From a virus (lineage: Duplodnaviria; Caudoviricetes): a stretch of DNA of 28,964 nucleotides. The DNA lies in IMG/VR virus record IMGVR_UViG_3300025508_000116, positions 1-28,964 of that record; one strand, 5' to 3'. Below, in pieces: positions 37 through 15,737 of the stretch. A program made the translations under genes and the position numbers. Numbering within the stretch: position 1 is the stretch's first letter; every line of letters begins with the position of its first letter. The notes beneath the pieces were generated by a model that did not search any database, was not told the DNA's origin, and saw only the letters and a program-made list of their open reading frames with translations.

Positions 37-972
37 TCATACATTGTCGTCATCCTCCAAGTTTAATCCAAGTTCTTTCTTAAGTTCTGCCGCAGTGTAC
101 CCAATGTAGTGTAGGTAATCCGCAACTTCTGCTGCATGGTCATAGATCAAGTCTTCAATATCACCTTTCTCAATCAAGTCAATGACCTCTTGTGTCGTAC
201 CTTTGTCAGCCCTCTCAAAGTTAACAACCTTAGGGTCCCTCTTGATAACAAGCTTAGACCAATCAGCCTCAATAAGAGCAGGTACTAGTACACGCAGAAA
301 GTCAAGGTCCTGTGTCTCATATTTGGTATGTTGTTTCTCATACCCCACACTTAGATTAGTGCACTCAGGTATGTCGTCCCGATACTCATTGGAGTCAGTG
401 AATACACCGTGCTTATCCTTCTCCATACCTAAGTCTAGAATGTCAATAAGAGAATCAGCAAACTCGTCAGAACAAGTACGGTAACTCATCTGGTGTGTCA
501 CCACAGACTTAGTACCATATCTGTCAAAACTGATAGCAGCCTTAGCGTATTCCATCCAAGATTGCTTACTTAATACCATACCACTAGAGCCTAGGCAACC
601 TACTTCTTCACCTCCATGGACAATATAGATGCCCGGTACCTCAGCTTCAATCATCTCAAGAATGATCCATAGCCCTGTCGTACAGTCAGCCCCAAGGCAA
701 TCACCCTCAGGAGTATAAGCTGTATCAAGGGTTGTCTCTACTGTTTGGAAGCCCCCATTGAAGTGTACCGTGTCATGGTGAGCCATGAAGGCAACCTCAG
801 GGAAGCTACCATCGTCATTTAAGATAGTTGTGAAGTAGTTACCAAATTCATCTGGGTTACCGAATACAGGCTCAAGATACAACTCACAAAAGACTGTCTG
901 TGCGATACTACCTTCAGGACGCTGCCACCTAAGCATATCTAATAGGTAGTCAATGTCTGGTGTATAGGTCAT
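37..972 (-). CDS. Zinc-dependent peptidase/amidohydrolase, M28/M20/M42-like (copy 1)
   Basis: Motifs AFMAHHDTVH, LGADCTTG, GEEVGCLGS, ISFDRYG, FTDS and ECTNLSVGY..QH are typical of the aminopeptidase clan MH metal ligands. The start overlaps the upstream stop (ATGA). Confidence 0.85.
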   Translation of the reverse strand: MTYTPDIDYLLDMLRWQRPEGSIAQTVFCELYLEPVFGNPDEFGNYFTTILNDDGSFPEVAFMAHHDTVHFNGGFQTVETTLDTAYTPEGDCLGADCTTGLWIILEMIEAEVPGIYIVHGGEEVGCLGSSGMVLSKQSWMEYAKAAISFDRYGTKSVVTHQMSYRTCSDEFADSLIDILDLGMEKDKHGVFTDSNEYRDDIPECTNLSVGYEKQHTKYETQDLDFLRVLVPALIEADWSKLVIKRDPKVVNFERADKGTTQEVIDLIEKGDIEDLIYDHAAEVADYLHYIGYTAAELKKELGLNLEDDDNV

Positions 973-2405
973 GCTGTTTCCTTTTCTTTTTCATAGATGT
1001 AATCACCTTCATCGTCAAGCACCATGTACTTCTCTGCGTACTCCTTGGAGACGAGACCGTAGGGGCCAGAGTTAGAGAGAAGGTCGTCAACATGCCAGAC
1101 GTCACCAGTAGGCTCACACTCTCCATAGTCTCCACTGTAGCTGCTCATCCACACACTGTCAGTACCATAGCGAGTAGACACGTAGACCATTATAGCATCG
1201 TCAATGTGAATCTCATTACCATCTTCATCCTGCACGAAGGTATCATTGTAACAGCAGTCACAGTAGAAATCACCAGCCTCTGAGGTGCAGAGTTCGTCTT
1301 GATCTACCCCCTCTTCACAACCACAACAATGGTAACGAGCGCCCAAGCCTGCAAAACCTTCAGTACCCTGTGCTTCATAAGGGCCACTAGAAGTCAACCG
1401 GAACCCATCGTCATACTCTTCAAACTCTGCAGGACCGACATCAATGTAGGGCATAAGAACTTCTTTATAACAAGTCTCAATACGGAGAAGCTTAGCACCA
1501 GACCAGTCAGAGTAACTACCCATAACACAACCCATCTCCTTAATATGAGCCTCCAACATGTCAAGAGATTTCTCATCCACACCATAGCAAGGACCAGCTT
1601 GAGGTTTCTTACCCTCAGAGACACGAGTGTAGACCACACAACGACCAGCTACACGATCCTTATCATCCTTAAGGTAGATGATCGTAAAGTCACCTGAGGC
1701 ATAGACGATTGCTGGGTGTCTCTCACTAAATTCAAACTCACCCTGCATACAAGAGTTCTTAAGGGACTTCCTCATCTCGCATGTAGAGGGGGTAGCAGAG
1801 GGTGCAACTTCTCCAGCGTATGCGTACTCAAAATCATCTGACTTGGTACCTACATGGAGCGTATAGGACTTCTCAGAGTATATCTCACGGTACTTGTTCA
1901 CGAAGTCTTCAACCTCAGCATCAGATACATTTGGTTTAAGCATACGGAAGAACTTACCGGGCTTCATCTTAGTCTTACGGTTACGGAGGTAATCACGGAG
2001 ATTAACGTAGCACTCAACTGCGGCATCATCAATGGGGTTAGCACAAAGAAGCCTGTTGTACACAAATACATCATAACCCCAAGTATGACTAAAGCCAGAC
2101 CTATCCCCCTCCAAGTTACCTAACTGCTCAATAGTCTCAACACCACGAGCCTTGAACCAATCCGGCACTGTACCCATATAGCGTTGATTACCTTCTGCAT
2201 CTACATGGATGAGACGTTTATTGTTCCAGTAGAGAAGAAGGTCATGTATATTACACCAAAAAAGACCCGGAATATTAAAGTCGTTGGTTGGCTCATAAAG
2301 ATTCTCAGTATCTTCAAGGCGGTGTGGGTTCATCAAAGTCCCACCATAAACCATTACACGGTAGATACCTTCAACCAAGTACTCTTCTACAATCTTAGTA
2401 GCCAT
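969..2405 (-). CDS. Unknown 'NSCM'-motif protein with C-terminal Cys-rich (Zn-ribbon-like) acidic tail (copy 1)
   Basis: ATG 2405 is preceded by the SD AGGAG (the track start of 2450 overlaps the upstream gene). Motifs KNSCM, HP..Y..GDF, GRC and MPYID; CCGC...CDCC near the C-terminus. Paralogous to 3374..4408. Confidence 0.8.
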   Translation of the reverse strand: MATKIVEEYLVEGIYRVMVYGGTLMNPHRLEDTENLYEPTNDFNIPGLFWCNIHDLLLYWNNKRLIHVDAEGNQRYMGTVPDWFKARGVETIEQLGNLEGDRSGFSHTWGYDVFVYNRLLCANPIDDAAVECYVNLRDYLRNRKTKMKPGKFFRMLKPNVSDAEVEDFVNKYREIYSEKSYTLHVGTKSDDFEYAYAGEVAPSATPSTCEMRKSLKNSCMQGEFEFSERHPAIVYASGDFTIIYLKDDKDRVAGRCVVYTRVSEGKKPQAGPCYGVDEKSLDMLEAHIKEMGCVMGSYSDWSGAKLLRIETCYKEVLMPYIDVGPAEFEEYDDGFRLTSSGPYEAQGTEGFAGLGARYHCCGCEEGVDQDELCTSEAGDFYCDCCYNDTFVQDEDGNEIHIDDAIMVYVSTRYGTDSVWMSSYSGDYGECEPTGDVWHVDDLLSNSGPYGLVSKEYAEKYMVLDDEGDYIYEKEKETA

Positions 2406-2415
2406 TGTCTTTCTC

Positions 2416-3399
2416 CTAGTAGTTAGCCTCAAGCATCCGATTAAGGTCATGCGAGGTAGGGTTAATATTCAAGTCTTCAAGAAGTGAGGCAGCATCATAC
2501 CCCACATTCCTTAGTATGTCTGCAACTTCTTCTGGGTAGTCACTGCACAATTCAGCAAGGAAGCTAGTCTCTGCCCTAACTGCTGACTGATAGCCCCCAC
2601 TGTCGTTGTAGTAGTTGTCACCCCATGGGTCAAGGGAGGACCTAAAGATCATATCACGAGGGTCCCTTACAATATCCAGAGCACCCCAATCAGCATCAAT
2701 AAGATTACCAATAAGTTCCTCTAGGTAGTTAAGGTCCTGAGACTCATTGACACTATGCTGGTTGTAGTAACCCACTGAGATATTAGTACACTCAGGGATG
2801 AAGTGGATGTACTCAATGCTATCAGTGAAGGCACCAGTAGGATCAGGTGTCAGGTATGGCATACCCAAGGTGGACGACAAAGAAGTAGCAAACTCATCTG
2901 AGCAGGTACGTTCTCCCATCTGGTGCGTTATGATAGAAGTAGTTCCATACCTGTCGAAGCTGATAGCTGCCTCAACCTTGTCAAGATAGGGTGGTCTACG
3001 TTTAGCCAAAGCCTTAGAGCCTACACACCCAATCTCCTCCCCTGCATGAATGATATACACACCCGGTACATCAGCCTCAATCATACGAAGGATAATGTAT
3101 ACACCAGTTGTACAGTCAGCACCGAGACAAGACCTACTCCAGTTCTTCTCTGCAAGGGATACATGACCCTTACTACTTACGTGGATACGTTGGAAGCCTT
3201 GATCTTTGTGCACTGTATCATGATGAGCCATGAAGGCAATCTTAGGGTACTTAGAGCCTACCAAGAGGAAGTAGTTACCATCCTCATCAGGTTCACCAAA
3301 GACAGGCTCTAAGTATTTCTTACAGAAGAGGCGTTGGGCATTAGAACCCTCTGGCCTCATGTAGTTTAACATATCAAGTAGTTGTTGCATTTGCTTCAC
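2416..3399 (-). CDS. Zinc-dependent peptidase/amidohydrolase, M28/M20/M42-like (copy 2)
   Basis: Same motifs as 37..972 (AFMAHHDTVH, LGADCTTG, GEEIGC, ISFDRYG, ECTNISVGY..QH). The start may be ATG 3390. Confidence 0.85.
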   Translation of the reverse strand: MKQMQQLLDMLNYMRPEGSNAQRLFCKKYLEPVFGEPDEDGNYFLLVGSKYPKIAFMAHHDTVHKDQGFQRIHVSSKGHVSLAEKNWSRSCLGADCTTGVYIILRMIEADVPGVYIIHAGEEIGCVGSKALAKRRPPYLDKVEAAISFDRYGTTSIITHQMGERTCSDEFATSLSSTLGMPYLTPDPTGAFTDSIEYIHFIPECTNISVGYYNQHSVNESQDLNYLEELIGNLIDADWGALDIVRDPRDMIFRSSLDPWGDNYYNDSGGYQSAVRAETSFLAELCSDYPEEVADILRNVGYDAASLLEDLNINPTSHDLNRMLEANY

Positions 3400-4408
3400 C
3401 CATTAGTTCACCCCTTAGTTCTTGATACCTCTGAATTGCACTACGTAATTCTGCCATATCACGCTCATATCCGGTGGAGACAGTTACTGTAGAGCAGGCA
3501 TTTGATGAAGGCTGAAAGGTACCTTCAGTACTTGGTTTTTTAATCACACGCCTAAACTCTGCAAGACCAGTAGCACCTGAAGCATTTACAGTTCCTGTGC
3601 AGTCTTTAACCTCATAGCCACCACCGTAGTAGTAGAACATGTCATCCGCTGGGTTAAGCATCAATTTAGTGTGATCTAGGTCAATGTAAGGTAGTACCTT
3701 GTAGTCATGACAATCATCAGTATGATCAATGTTTTTAAATCGGGCACCCTTCCAATCCCTAGAGATAGCAATAGTAACACCCTCTGCGGTAAGCCTTTCA
3801 ACAAAAACAGAGTAAGCCTTGTTAGAGACACAGTAGATAGGTGCCCTTGTGTTGGTCAAGGTACAGATCACAGTACGAGCAAGCATTAAGCCTTCCTCAT
3901 TGTACAGGGTAGCAACCTTGAAATCACCAGTATCATAAGCAGTAGCAGGGTGAGCAGGGTAACCGTCCTTTCCTACATAGTCATACCGCATACAAGAGTT
4001 GTATTGGCTCTTCTTGTCGTTAGTAGTATCGAAGTAACTCTCCTTCATGAACTTACCAGTGAAGGCTTCTTCAAAGTTGTTACCCTCAGTGTACACCCAA
4101 GCTGAGGTATCAACAAGGTACTCACCATTTACAGCAGAGGATACCTTCTCTAGGTCATAGTCATCTATATCAGGGATGATCTGTTTGAGCATACGGCCCA
4201 CCTTACCTACACGGTGCTTAGCGTCAGGCTTAGGGCGAAACCCTACTTGATTGTTGACAACCCTAAGGTCATGGTACATCATCAACTCCCTGCGTGATTG
4301 AGCAAAGGGTAATATACCTGAGATAAAGTCACACAAATCCTCATCTCCACGGTGGATACAAGGACCGTACTCACCTATAATCTTGAAGTAGTCTGTATAC
4401 CTAGACAT
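3374..4408 (-). CDS. Unknown 'NSCM'-motif protein (copy 2, lacks the Cys-rich tail)
   Basis: 344-aa ORF with SD AAGGAG. Motifs YNSCM, HPATAYDTGDF, ART, WKGA and LPYID align with 969..2405. Confidence 0.8.
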   Translation of the reverse strand: MSRYTDYFKIIGEYGPCIHRGDEDLCDFISGILPFAQSRRELMMYHDLRVVNNQVGFRPKPDAKHRVGKVGRMLKQIIPDIDDYDLEKVSSAVNGEYLVDTSAWVYTEGNNFEEAFTGKFMKESYFDTTNDKKSQYNSCMRYDYVGKDGYPAHPATAYDTGDFKVATLYNEEGLMLARTVICTLTNTRAPIYCVSNKAYSVFVERLTAEGVTIAISRDWKGARFKNIDHTDDCHDYKVLPYIDLDHTKLMLNPADDMFYYYGGGYEVKDCTGTVNASGATGLAEFRRVIKKPSTEGTFQPSSNACSTVTVSTGYERDMAELRSAIQRYQELRGELMGEANATTT

Positions 4409-4420
4409 TCTTAATACTCC

Positions 4421-4861
4421 TTATGCTGATTTTCTGAGTACAGTGGACACTGAACATTCAAGACTCTTAGCTATTGCAGCAATAGTCCAACCTTGTTTAC
4501 GAAGGATTTTAACAGCCTCGCCAGATACATTCATATTGAGCTTACGTACCAGTGTTGGTGTACCTACATCGAAGGACTTAATCTCCTCTTCACTCATAGG
4601 AAAGGGGACCATATCATCCAACTTGATAGGCTCACCATTAAGCAAGGGTTGTTCATCTTCATAGACGATAATAGTCTCACGGTCACGGCTCCAGCGAGTA
4701 CGCATCCCCTTAAAGTTAGAGTTATAAGGTGATACACTCATACGAGTAACCTGCTTCTTGTTGGTCATCTTCAGAACACGCAAGGGTGTCTTATAGTAGA
4801 GCACTTGCTGCCCATCCATCTGGTTGTACTTGATGATTGCTTTTACTTGTACAGTTTTCAT
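4421..4861 (-). CDS. DNA-binding protein with C-terminal helix-turn-helix
   Basis: The C-terminus LRKQGWTIAAIAKSLECSVSTVLRK is a classic HTH (resolvase/Hin-like). SD AAGGA. Confidence 0.75.
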   Translation of the reverse strand: MKTVQVKAIIKYNQMDGQQVLYYKTPLRVLKMTNKKQVTRMSVSPYNSNFKGMRTRWSRDRETIIVYEDEQPLLNGEPIKLDDMVPFPMSEEEIKSFDVGTPTLVRKLNMNVSGEAVKILRKQGWTIAAIAKSLECSVSTVLRKSA

Positions 4862-6979: not shown

Positions 6980-7250
6980 CTTATCATTCCTTTTAAAGAT
7001 GCAGAATTACATCATAAGGCACAACCTAAAAGATTGTGACCTAGCTATAATTCCATAGCCCCCTCATGGCGTACAATCGTTGCACGTCCAGAATTATACT
7101 GGCGGGTTTTGGCAAGCCCCGTGTTTACCACGACCTGCGACCAGTCCACTGTTTTCTATTAATCTGGACCAGCCACAATGGGAGCCGCGTTTTGTCATAC
7201 GTCCATGATCGGTTTTCACCTAGGAAGTTCAGATTGCCTTAGGGGCACAA

Positions 7251-7264
7251 AATGTCAAAGAGCG
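7251..7264 (-). promoter_or_regulatory. boxA antitermination element (CGCTCTTTGACATT)
   Basis: The reverse complement of 7251-7264 matches the boxA consensus (C/T)GCTCTTT(A/G)ACA and lies in the early leader in the sense orientation. Confidence 0.65.
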
Positions 7265-7429
7265 TTGGCGTTGATCTGATTTCCGGTATCCTCTTTTCAC
7301 TCCGCATCTAATCCAGTCGCAACCTTCTTAGACACCGCAAGCGATCCAATTCAACTTTCTATCCAGCACCGACCCCCTTAGTCCCGTGGGGGCTTACCGT
7401 CCCGACCCCCTGTTCCGTTTGGGCCGTTT

Positions 7430-7490
7430 CGATGAATCACTTAAATCACAGGTCTTGATTGGGGTAAACAACTATTTTTACTTTCTTATA
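7430..7490 (-). promoter_or_regulatory. Putative leftward early promoter
   Basis: An A/T-rich UP-like tract is followed by TTTACC...GATTTAAGT and then ATCGAAAC. The position at the head of the leader fits, but the -10 match is weak. Confidence 0.35.
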
Positions 7491-7522
7491 AGTGATTGAA
7501 AACAAAGGATAAATCGACCTAT

Positions 7523-7558
7523 GTTCTACTTTGTTCCTGATTCGTTCCTGATTCGGTC
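7523..7558 (+). promoter_or_regulatory. Tandem alphaproteobacterial LexA-box array
   Basis: GTTC-N6-GTTC-N7-GTTC-N7-GGTC, with a perfect GTTC-N7-GTTC at 7533-7547. Confidence 0.65.
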
Positions 7559-7714
7559 CCCCATTTTCTGCTGTAGGTTGTGAAATTAGTTTAGTGCAAC
7601 TTAAGGTAGTCCTTTTTATATTATATAGTATACGGTTTTTTAGCATTCCAGCAACCTAGAGGTGATCAACTAGGGATGACAGTAGTGGACCCCTAACTAT
7701 ACCTGAAGGATACC

Positions 7715-7740
7715 GTTCCTGATTCGTTCCTATTGTGTTG
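7715..7740 (+). promoter_or_regulatory. LexA-box array
   Basis: GTTC-ctgattc-GTTC-ctattgt-GTTG. Confidence 0.65.
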
Positions 7741-7876
7741 CAAGAAAGACACGTCAACAGATTAATCGTTATATTCAATAAACTGAATGTGATTAAATAA
7801 TAGGCAGATAGGCGACAAAGTAACGGGATGTTACAAGATGGCTTAAACCTTGAAACAATGTGATCGGATAAAGAAT

Positions 7877-7891
7877 GAACAAGATAGGAAC
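7877..7891 (-). promoter_or_regulatory. LexA box (opposite orientation)
   Basis: GAAC-aagatag-GAAC, followed by a degenerate GAAT. Confidence 0.6.
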
Positions 7892-8072
7892 AGAAGTGAA
7901 TACCGCGAAACAAGCCCGCTAAGCTGTCAAGTCGGTGCGCCCCCTAGTCGTTCTATATCAGATTGAAGCCGCCCCCTTGCGCCCCCTTATATCGCCGCTA
8001 TGGGCTTGGATATGTTAGCAGTAGAGTGAAGATATATTTAGTCGCCTGTTGGTTGTCTTGTATGTTACATTC

Positions 8073-8114
8073 GGTGTACGGTATGTGGTATGTAGTGTGT
8101 GATATGTGGTATGG
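8073..8114 (+). repeat. Six degenerate 7-bp tandem repeats (consensus GGTATGT)
   Basis: ggtgtac ggtatgt ggtatgt agtgtgt gatatgt ggtatgg. Confidence 0.7.
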
Positions 8115-8191
8115 TAGTTACATGAAACTTTCTTTCCTGCGAGTGAACAACCTAATAATGTAACAGGCATTAACATTCGCACCCGTATGGT

Positions 8192-8206
8192 GTTCTCTTT
8201 TTGTTC
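8192..8206 (+). promoter_or_regulatory. LexA box
   Basis: GTTC-tcttttt-GTTC. Confidence 0.6.
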
Positions 8207-8732
8207 TCCTTTTCGTGTGATTGTATTGTATCCTCGGCGGGAAACCAACACGTGTATAACCCTTAGGTTGTAGGGGGGAGGCAGGGGCCATGGCACCTAG
8301 GTACGTACGTATATACCACCAATGACAGCGGGGGGTATTTTAAACTTGTTAACAGGGGAGTGAATTATAGCTAAATAGGCCTTATTTAAAAGAACAAGCG
8401 TTCAATTAATGGGAAATGTGAGTAAATTAAGTTAGAGGCTCTGTAAGGGGCCTTAGAATGCCTTTACGATCTTTCGGGGGTAGCCCTAGCCTAGCACTTA
8501 GAGGTACCCCTGTGAGCCTCCTGAGGATCGCTGTGAGGATACTTCTAGATATGGAGGGTAAATCTTAGGGGTTTGGCGGGGGAAAGCACTCAGTTATTAG
8601 GAGAGGTGGTCTGAAAGGTAAAATTGGCTAGGTTTTATTACCAATTAGGGGGATTTGGAAAGAAATGTTAGTTTAAGGTGTGACACGTTGTCGCACTTAG
8701 TGACTTTTTTACCACTCTTGTAAATATTTAGC

Positions 8733-8761
8733 TTGACAAAAGGACCAAAATGCGGTATAAC
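8733..8761 (+). promoter_or_regulatory. Sigma70-type rightward promoter
   Basis: TTGACA-N17-TATAAC with an AT-rich upstream region. Confidence 0.8.
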
Positions 8762-8773
8762 TCCCTTTAGGGA

Positions 8774-9020
8774 ACTTAAAGAGACTACTTAAAGTTTAAA
8801 CTCTAAGGTTTTAATATTACTAAGTATATAAAGATAATAAAGAACTTAAAGAGATAACTTAAAGCTTAAACTTAAAGTACTGCTAAGAGATTTTATTACT
8901 TATCTGGTTCATAAGAGATGATAAGAACTTAAAGTTGAAACTTAAAGTACTGACTCTAGTCCTGTTCTTACCTTTGTCGTATAAAAATAATAATGAGCTT
9001 AGAGTTTAAACTTTAAGTAG
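8774..9020. repeat. ACTTAAAG repeat field with a perfect 23-bp inverted repeat (8785-8807 / 8998-9020)
   Basis: ACTTAAAG at 8774, 8787, 8844, 8857, 8870, 8927 and 8940, plus a reverse copy at 9011. CTACTTAAAGTTTAAACTCTAAG recurs as its exact reverse complement. Confidence 0.85.
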
Positions 9021-9071
9021 GGGGCTTATAGGGCTAAGTCTAGTTTCTTCTGTCGTCCCCCTTATTTTATG

Positions 9072-9100
9072 TTGACTTCCAAACCTTAATGAGTATAACT
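9072..9100 (+). promoter_or_regulatory. Rightward promoter for the lysis/late arm
   Basis: TTGACT-N16-TATAAC, the same motif as 21963-21990. Confidence 0.7.
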
Positions 9101-10653: not shown

Positions 10654-10891
10654 CTCTACCCAGCAAAAATTTGGGGAAAATAAAATTGTCTTAGTCTCTG
10701 CTCCATCTGGTGAAGGTGTTGATGTAAGTCTAAGGCCACCTAGTAGGACCCCAGAGATTAAGCAGGTACAGAACGAGACTAACTACGAACTACCTACTTG
10801 GGTCTGGATTATCGCAATCCTACTTTTTATTATCGGATGGACAACTGATACCCCCGGTACAATTCTAAAGAACTTTAAGAGGAAGAAATAA
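10523..10891 (+). CDS. Probable unimolecular spanin (lipoprotein with C-terminal TM)
   Basis: TTG 10523 gives MVSLVLILLLAGC (lipobox LAGC, Cys codon 10559). C-terminal TM WVWIIAILLFIIGW followed by a basic tail. Confidence 0.7.
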   Translation: MVSLVLILLLAGCGASPLSLLTGGGPNVAANTQVGKENTQTIGNSTQQKFGENKIVLVSAPSGEGVDVSLRPPSRTPEIKQVQNETNYELPTWVWIIAILLFIIGWTTDTPGTILKNFKRKK

Positions 10892-11148
10892 TGCCTAGCT
10901 CGAAGTCGTATAAAAGAGACTACAAGCAAGAAGGTAAGTACCACGCTACTGCTGACCAGAAGAAGAAACGTGCTTCTCGTAATGCTGCTCGGGCTAAGCT
11001 TAAGAAGGCTGGAGTAGCTGTAGCTGGTAAGGATGTAGATCATAAAAATGGGAACGCCAAGGACAACAAGAAGTCTAATCTTCGTGTGCAGTCTAAGGCT
11101 AAGAACCGGAGCTTTCCTCGTACTAAGACTGCAGGTAAAAAGAAATGA
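10891..11148 (+). CDS. Small basic HNH endonuclease
   Basis: KDVDHKNGN..DN..SNLRV....NR motif. Confidence 0.75.
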   Translation: MPSSKSYKRDYKQEGKYHATADQKKKRASRNAARAKLKKAGVAVAGKDVDHKNGNAKDNKKSNLRVQSKAKNRSFPRTKTAGKKK

Positions 11149-11429
11149 AAAAAGATGCTAAGCTAGCCAAAGCAGGGGTCAGTGGGTACAACAAGCCTAA
11201 GCGTACTCCAGACCATCCTAAGAAGTCTCACGTTGTTGTGGCTAAAGAAGGTGACAAGACTAAGACTATCCGCTTTGGTGAACAAGGCGCTAAGACTGCA
11301 GGTAAGCCTAAAGCTGGTGAGTCTGACAAGATGAAGAAAAAGCGGGCTAGCTTTAAGGCTCGTCATGGTAAGAATATTGCCAAGGGAAAGATGTCAGCAG
11401 CCTACTGGTCGGATAAAATTAAGTGGTGA
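11145..11429 (+). CDS. Small, highly basic phage protein
   Basis: KTIRFGEQG...RASFKARH...SAAYWSDKIKW; ATGA-coupled. Confidence 0.75.
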   Translation: MKKDAKLAKAGVSGYNKPKRTPDHPKKSHVVVAKEGDKTKTIRFGEQGAKTAGKPKAGESDKMKKKRASFKARHGKNIAKGKMSAAYWSDKIKW

Positions 11430-11908
11430 AGAAACTTAAAAGTGGCAAGTTTGCTAAAGACTGCCCTGAGTGTGGAAAACAACAAGCGTACCTACGAAAG
11501 TGCTACGCGGTAGAGTCAGAGAAATTAGGTAAACGATGCAGAGCTTGCTCTAACCGAGACCCAGAGAACAACGGACACAAGGGTTACTACAAGGGAGTAT
11601 TGCGTAAGTCTTTTGCACATAAATATAAGATTGGTGCAGAGACAAGAGGTATAGACTTCACAGTGTCTTTTGAGTATCTAGCTGACCTACTTATCAAACA
11701 AGATTTTGAGTGTGCTCTCTCCGGTATCAGTCTCGACGCAATGAGATTGAATAACAACGCCTCCCTTGATAGGATTGATAGCTATTTAGGTTACATAGAA
11801 GGCAATGTACAGTGGGTTACGTCTGAGGTGAATATGATGAAACAATCCTATAGCCAAGAAAGGTTTATTGAAGTGTGTAAAGCTGTGGCAGATAAGGCTA
11901 AGTGGTAA
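11423..11908 (+). CDS. Free-standing HNH-type homing endonuclease with N-terminal Zn finger
   Basis: CPEC/CRAC; C ALSG; SLDRIDS..GY..GNVQWV...NMMK. Confidence 0.8.
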   Translation: MVKKLKSGKFAKDCPECGKQQAYLRKCYAVESEKLGKRCRACSNRDPENNGHKGYYKGVLRKSFAHKYKIGAETRGIDFTVSFEYLADLLIKQDFECALSGISLDAMRLNNNASLDRIDSYLGYIEGNVQWVTSEVNMMKQSYSQERFIEVCKAVADKAKW

Positions 11909-15269: not shown

Positions 15270-15737
15270 ATGTCAAAAAAGCGTAAAGACCTTTTTAGGG
15301 TCGCTGCACCTGATAAGACCGATGTAGGTTATAAATTCTACCCCATTGTTCGTATCGGACGTTTCCTTCCCTTCGGGTACAAAGAAGACCCAGAGGACTC
15401 AATGGTACTCCTACCTGTAGAAGAAGAGTTAATCCTCCTCGAACAGGCCAAGGAGTATCTTAAGAGTTACTCCCTTCGTGATGTTTCGGCTTGGCTATCT
15501 AATAAGTCAGGACGTTACCTCTCTCACGTAGGCCTTAGCCTCAGGGTTAAGTCTGAACAGAAGAGGGCTAAGGAGTCAATCGACTCAAAGAGACTGCTGG
15601 AGCAATTCAGGTCTGCCTATAAGAAGGCCCGTAAGATTGAAGAGTCCCGGGTAGGCCGAAGAACTCCAACGGAGGAAGAACTAGATGACGAACTCTTTGC
15701 CAGCGTCTGCCAAGCCTGCCCCAATAGATGTAAGTAA
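15270..15737 (+). CDS. Putative DNA-binding protein between TerS and TerL
   Basis: PFGY...E...L...SLRDVSAWL...GRYLSHVGL resembles the recombinase-domain HTH. Confidence 0.6.
   Translation: MSKKRKDLFRVAAPDKTDVGYKFYPIVRIGRFLPFGYKEDPEDSMVLLPVEEELILLEQAKEYLKSYSLRDVSAWLSNKSGRYLSHVGLSLRVKSEQKRAKESIDSKRLLEQFRSAYKKARKIEESRVGRRTPTEEELDDELFASVCQACPNRCK

Follow-up and report, generated by a model that had tools for sequence, protein, structure and literature searches.

We analyzed a 28,964-nucleotide (nt) stretch of phage DNA (IMG/VR virus record IMGVR_UViG_3300025508_000116, positions 1 to 28,964; here called the window), in which positions 37 to 4,408 hold a two-gene module in two copies, A and B. 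Each copy encodes an SCM-family cysteine protein (N; NSCM in the initial annotation) and a zinc peptidase (P). The window comes from a marine, roseophage-like podophage of the HMO-2011 type. Its capsid protein is 81% identical to those of the Roseobacter phages CRP-13 and CRP-9 and 70% identical to that of HMO-2011, and its right half contains lysis, terminase, portal, capsid, and tail genes. The four module genes lie on the minus strand, and the open reading frames (ORFs) of the window agreed with the initial annotation in coordinates and in the order of transcription, N-B, P-B, N-A, P-A (Table 1). The overlaps it reported inside each pair were also recovered, at 26 nt for N-B/P-B if a GTG start is used and 4 nt (ATGA) for N-A/P-A, and P-B and N-A are spaced by 10 nt. 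Ribosome-binding sites are present at the proposed starts of the module genes; the N-A start at ATG 2405 has an AGGAGA site, and the longer alternative at ATG 2450 has none. In a record with four proteins that match the window, P-A is followed by primase-helicase and ThyX, which makes the module the last part of the early region, adjoining the primase-helicase gene. Neither N nor P is present in CRP-9 and CRP-13, thereby indicating that the module is accessory in the HMO-2011-type group.

Table 1. Genes of the doubled N-P module in the window
Gene	Coordinates	Strand	Length (amino acids)	Features
N-B	3374..4408	-	344	SCM-family cysteine protein; predicted GNAT-like core (K134, S138, C139, Y158, R178, Y192, D243); without Cys-rich tail
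P-B	2416..3399	-	327	Predicted clan MH zinc amidohydrolase; phrog_4191 / PF04389
N-A	969..2405	-	478	Helical MKPGK subdomain; predicted GNAT-like core (K213, S218, C219, Y235, R255, Y274, D322); two CxxC pairs; acidic tail
P-A	37..972	-	311	Predicted clan MH zinc amidohydrolase; phrog_4191 / PF04389; H65, D67, D96, E122, E123, D150, H215 invariant; C-terminal helical extension

The two P copies are 49% identical over 311 columns (E 1e-101), and the full zinc-ligand and catalytic set (H-x-D, D, E-E, D/E, H) is present in both, as expected from the annotated high similarity and intact metal ligands. Both copies hit phrog_4191 (E 1e-69 and 1e-76) and scored above the cut-off of PF04389 (23.5-23.7 versus 21.3 bits). 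The P-A residues given as invariant in Table 1 were conserved in 39 of 39 P sequences, and likewise R18 and R151. The structure model of P (predicted local distance difference test score, pLDDT, 90) was closest to PepT, PahZ2, M42 peptidases, and DapE, with a Foldseek E of 5e-10 to PepT; the nearest structures include exopeptidases and small-molecule amidohydrolases (PepT, PahZ2, DapE, and ArgE-type). A sequence search of solved structures with P gave one weak tripeptidase match. By its ligands, profile match, and predicted fold, P is an intact clan MH amidohydrolase. Its predicted fold and its H-x-D, G-A-D, E-E, D, and H ligands are those of other clan MH hydrolases (M28, M20, and M42, including PepT, PahZ2, DapE, and TET). 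In contrast to these, the P clade has about 255 residues, no large inserted domain, and a helical or variable tail, and it shows 11-18% identity to the listed solved structures.

The two N copies are far more diverged (27% identity over 226 columns, E 1e-16), yet each of the motifs K.G+..+...P, KS..NSCM, HP...Y..GDF, (G/A)R, W.GA+, and PYID is found in both, as had been annotated. Also in agreement, the CxxC pairs (C360/C363 and C382/C385) and a 25% acidic tail occur in N-A only. Three relatives of N-B with 82-87% identity retain every motif, and N-B therefore seems not to be decayed. N-A hits phrog_6980 (E 2.8e-7). No Pfam family was matched by the window N proteins or by any of 46 family members in hmmscan, and a sequence search of solved structures with the N profile gave no match, so the view of N as a protein outside characterized families held. 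A profile of the 46 sequences collected 3,865 clusters at 50% identity (E up to 0.001); the N family is large, phage associated, and has no Pfam entry. In N-A numbering, K213, S218, C219, F240, R255, and Y274 are present in 147 of 147 newly listed representatives and D322 in 146 of 146. A second N clade (motifs SCM, GRALLW, MDRxY, and PYxDT) is homologous to the main clade (hhalign probability, 99.2%). N had been annotated as a Cys/His/Arg enzyme; the cysteine and arginine are invariant, but the motif histidine is not among the columns conserved in at least 85% of the 147 representatives and is missing from the second clade. A complex prediction for N-A (residues 100-478) with P-A scored 0.00 in two runs, with no controls folded, and has no bearing either way.

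The N-P pair is real and widespread. Linkage was examined in an N-anchored set of 79 IMG/VR loci (with the window phage excluded from the best 80 of 156; partly redundant) and in an overlapping P-anchored set of 78 loci (from the best 80 of 277 matches minus the window phage). P lay directly downstream of N within 60 nt in 76 of the 79 N-anchored loci, and the three exceptions were two contig ends and one 885-nt gap; the co-occurrence survey proposed in the initial annotation thus found the genes linked in many other phages, very tightly in small ones. N was found in 63 of the 78 P-anchored loci (34 adjacent, 21 divergent, and 8 on the same strand with a gap), and each of the other 15 had at most 1,041 nt of upstream sequence. 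In one clade (L099-L161, 21 loci), N and P have divergent orientations and lie 0.6-1.6 kb apart. The order is reversed in phi40:1, and N and P are about 29 kb apart in Thermus phage P74-26; the linkage survives inversion and order swap. Over 30 nonredundant loci, the similarities of N and P were correlated (Spearman, 0.92; partial correlation after ThyX and helicase, 0.80). The pair is present in the cultured phages Pasto, BDU-MI-1, KpV71, KF1, YMC11, and PhiM1; the N of PhiM1 was missed by the N profile and was identified by position, motifs, a PHROG cross-hit, and matches to its relatives in BFVD. In Pseudomonas phage YMC11 (L094:3962-4950), N is intact and P lies in two overlapping frames, either a true split or a sequencing error. 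In addition, tblastn with the pair matched 38 Klebsiella phage records, and 230 Klebsiella phage records matched the KP34-type pair region at the DNA level. Hosts of phages with the family include Proteobacteria, Bacteroidota, and Thermus. Among cellular genomes, the pair was found in 1 of 301 of the searched class, namely the metagenome-assembled genome used as the search center, and a pattern scan of genome contigs gave the same locus only.

Recurrent neighbors of the pair were primase-helicase, ThyX, and an integrase. Phage neighborhoods of amidoligase, COOH-NH2 ligase, or ATP-grasp genes set an amide-forming enzyme next to an amide-breaking peptidase, an arrangement that N and P would share and that the initial annotation had invoked. 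This comparison was not borne out, since no Pfam match to amidoligase, COOH-NH2 ligase, ATP-grasp, or glutamine amidotransferase was found in representatives of 41 of the 60 largest neighbor clusters and two jumbo-phage proteins, a scan outside which rarer neighbors fall. In contrast to those neighborhoods, no such ligase accompanies the pair in the clusters tested, and the predicted fold of N is not that of an ATP-dependent ligase.

The closest known counterparts are single-copy pairs. KP34 gp10/gp11 (Drulisvirus; phrog_6980 and phrog_4191) and PhiM1 gp09/gp10 (phrog_13313) are homologous to the window pair and match it in gene order and in their place ahead of the primase. Their N proteins are about 27% identical to the window N, and the window pair differs in being doubled; the hits of N-A to phrog_6980 and of both P copies to phrog_4191 assign it to the KP34 gp10/gp11 type. 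In the available text of the KP34 source (PMC4411677), p10 and p11 are genus core genes labeled "hypothetical" and "putative peptidase," and no function is described for them. The SCM family is likewise not described in the available text of a jumbo-phage review that covers Rac and other GNATs (PMC7824862) or of a polyvalent-protein paper (PMC5512222). A literature search, with subscription papers largely outside its coverage, returned no description of the N-P pair. In the Klebsiella phage fHe-Kpn01 (L348), the toxicity screen left out the N and P orthologues according to the accessible part of the report, and the toxic Gp10 was ruled out as N because it is a 69-amino-acid protein (PMC7291057). 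Particle association is likewise annotated for the product of the gene that follows P in this phage (gp14, which corresponds in position to KP34 p12); gp14/p12 may be a third component of the pair in Drulisvirus and Phimunavirus.

The initial annotation regarded N and P as an obligate pair, which did not hold. Lullwater carries N alone, and L011, L102, and L107 have a short, tailless second N copy without its own P. Of 123 second-clade loci, 76 were long enough to inspect; P was within the locus in 31 (28 within 300 nt, in both orders), and the other 45, all in large phages, had no P within about 6 kb, several holding arrays of up to four N genes. The tandem arrays at L226, L232, L276, and L286 each hold three or four SCM-family genes, all of them short (316-361 amino acids), with P likewise missing within about 6 kb. 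When 23 second-clade viral records were searched whole, P was found elsewhere in 15, including all four at 90% completeness or more. The 636-kb phage LR756504.1 (loci L178-L213) has 14 N and 8 P paralogues, scattered and with unrelated tails, and five records of 635-735 kb have 8-15 matching places each. At one extreme, a tail of an LR756504 paralogue has 14 CxxC motifs; at the other, the tails are long domains unrelated to each other. Some of the tails are DnaJ-type zinc fingers. Tsamsa and LW31 have distant peptidases, with no N detectable. Because N alone, N arrays, and scattered unequal paralogues occur, the pair is a functional partnership and not a fixed one-to-one unit.

We then considered the predicted structure of N. 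The core model (pLDDT, 89) had a best VIA match with a Z of 7.8 and a root-mean-square deviation of 3.3, and all 50 listed matches were GNAT fold; nearly all matches listed by Foldseek against the PDB were GNAT fold as well. Compared with the GNAT core order beta1-alpha1-alpha2-beta2-beta3-beta4-alpha3, the model agreed at moderate strength. The N core thus appears to resemble the first two-thirds of the GNAT fold, in a consistent but moderate match, and the annotated idea of a modifying enzyme gained ground, as the predicted fold fits a transferase. The GNAT segment beta5-alpha4-beta6, which completes the coenzyme A (CoA) cleft, was unaligned in 49 of 50 VIA matches, and the N model shows beta hairpins there. 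By the secondary structure of the model, the invariant cysteine is in the loop between helices 1 and 2 and the arginine is on strand 3; in GNATs, both of these elements line the acceptor site. The top matches of the N model in a viral structure library were uncharacterized phage proteins. The PcfJ-like domain (PF14284), a mobile-element domain, resembles N in a conserved cysteine before a three-strand sheet but differs in motif. Leads to it were weak (Foldseek E 0.05; language-model similarity, 0.85-0.88), and its profile matched 0 of 46 N members by hmmscan, with an hhalign probability of 0.1% against a shallow, 6-sequence PcfJ alignment.

We tentatively favor, with somewhat less than even confidence, a reading in which N would be a cysteine-dependent acyl or aminoacyl transferase and P a zinc amidohydrolase, with both enzymes acting at one amide in a host target during early infection. 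This reading draws on the observed linkage, invariant residues, intact zinc ligands, phage association, joint presence and absence, and paralogue expansion with variable tails, and on the folds predicted for N (GNAT-like) and P (clan MH). N, as a remodeled GNAT fold, would transfer the group onto an amine of a host molecule through a thioester on its invariant cysteine. The donor would be other than standard acetyl-CoA, perhaps aminoacyl-tRNA or another activated acyl group. P would hydrolyze the amide made by N again or trim the target beforehand. The variable tails may act as target selectors, and the second module copy may provide a second specificity. A wider version is possible but doubtful: a reversible phage amide-tagging system with a Cys-dependent, CoA-independent GNAT-like writer, a zinc eraser, swappable targeting tails, and at least a dozen paralogues that would rewrite many host proteins in the largest phages, possibly delivered in the particle.

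Several observations weigh against the transferase reading. A Z of 7.8 over 97 residues is a level that, according to VIA, may mean only a common arrangement, and the best Foldseek E was 0.02, with the alignment confined to residues 79-199 of the N model. The acetyl-CoA motif of GNATs (motif A, with the consensus Q/R-x-x-G-x-G/A) was found in 0 of 147 N representatives, in which the segment reads P-x-Y-G-x-x-E, and the acyl donor is therefore a guess. The covariation of N and P is inflated by their physical linkage and adjacency and by nonindependent pairs. Regarding the partnership itself, the N-only genome of Lullwater is complete. Whole-record searches of the 23 large-phage records found no P in 8, of which three are 62-86% complete, and LR756504, the sole giant phage counted, has more N than P.

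The alternative that survives best, though unlikely, is a two-step breakdown in which N would have a GNAT-like scaffold and work as a cysteine hydrolase or transpeptidase, with P completing the reaction. The pair would then destroy a host amide molecule, such as a peptide-linked metabolite, an amino-acid-conjugated defense signal, or an envelope peptide. An invariant cysteine without a CoA motif fits hydrolysis equally with transfer, small-molecule amidohydrolases and exopeptidases are among the structures nearest to P, and the patchy accessory distribution fits counter-defense. However, N has no conserved histidine to form a Cys-His pair, and the large variable tails on N and P point to macromolecular targets. 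It is improbable that the pair forms a one-way pipeline, in which P would expose an N terminus or remove a blocking acyl group and N would add a residue marking host proteins for degradation, as do the N-degron transferases Aat, Bpt, and ATE1. The tRNA-dependent GNAT-fold transferases FemX, L-PGS, and ATE1 do appear in the Foldseek results for N, which lacks the CoA motif, and P is exopeptidase-like; but these matches are weak (E 0.04-0.14), CoA-dependent GNATs are interspersed among them, and Aat and FemX are not known to rely on a conserved cysteine. We give little credence to an action on phage products (DNA, virion, or replication proteins) or to N as a noncatalytic metal-binding adaptor for P: the pair adjoins the primase, and for its fHe-Kpn01 orthologues, gp12 and gp13, the annotation records detection in particle preparations by liquid chromatography-tandem mass spectrometry. 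Against this, both genes are missing from close relatives, the K, R, Y, and D that are invariant alongside the cysteine look catalytic, and, in the accessible part of the report, 29 of 56 proteins were detected in the glycerol-gradient preparation, with carry-over allowed by the authors (PMC7291057), so that the detection indicates expression and not packaging.

For the reading of N as a transferase acting on the host, a precedent is Rac, a canonical acetyl-CoA GNAT. As described in the available text of the review, Rac of phiKMV-like phages acetylates the alpha subunit of RNA polymerase and triggers its cleavage (PMC7824862). Rac and N would be alike as phage GNATs for host takeover tied to proteolysis of the target; unlike Rac, N has no motif A and has an invariant cysteine, extra domains, and an accompanying hydrolase. 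On the favored reading, N would act like a GNAT host-takeover enzyme, yet it is not a canonical acetyl-CoA GNAT. If N is a Cys-dependent transferase with its own eraser, the pair would represent new host-takeover chemistry, and two genus-core genes would gain a function. The family occurs in KP34-like Klebsiella phages and 635-735-kb phages alike, and it is directly testable because cultured phages carry it.

The history of the doubling was also examined. Modules A and B retain DNA similarity (67-70%) only in three short segments of the P genes, indicating that the doubling is old. In the P tree, P-A groups with P-B as its sister, at weak support (92/55); in the N tree, N-A is nested in the main clade and N-B is on a long branch elsewhere. 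An N-A plus N-B clade was not rejected by the approximately unbiased test (P = 0.32), which used 53 of 72 rows, after removal of 12 that belonged to a single large clade and of 7 that were long or partial. Judged from these trees, an old duplication with fast change of N-B is possible, as is a duplicated P with an imported N. One relative of N-A and one of N-B both list a longest contig of 57,560 nt, which hints at a doubled module in some related phage. Throughout the family, the genes tend to multiply; the doubling in the window is a local case of this and matters less than the rest of the finding.

Elsewhere in the window, a 146-amino-acid protein with a C-terminal helix-turn-helix (PF02796), a possible regulator, is encoded directly upstream of N-B (4421-4861, minus strand). 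A promoter and terminator scan of the window gave no excess over shuffles (17 versus 17.7 and 6 versus 6.1, respectively). About 2 kb without a convincing gene (7000-9100) lies between the divergent early and late arms and contains a GC-skew switch; this is probably a genome-end or origin region. AT-rich repeats of the TTTAAG/CTTAAA type occur near 8780-9000. HNH and endonuclease-like genes (15270-15737 and 10891-11908, plus strand) are found amid the lysis genes, and a 155-amino-acid ORF without a PHROG match lies between the terminase subunits.

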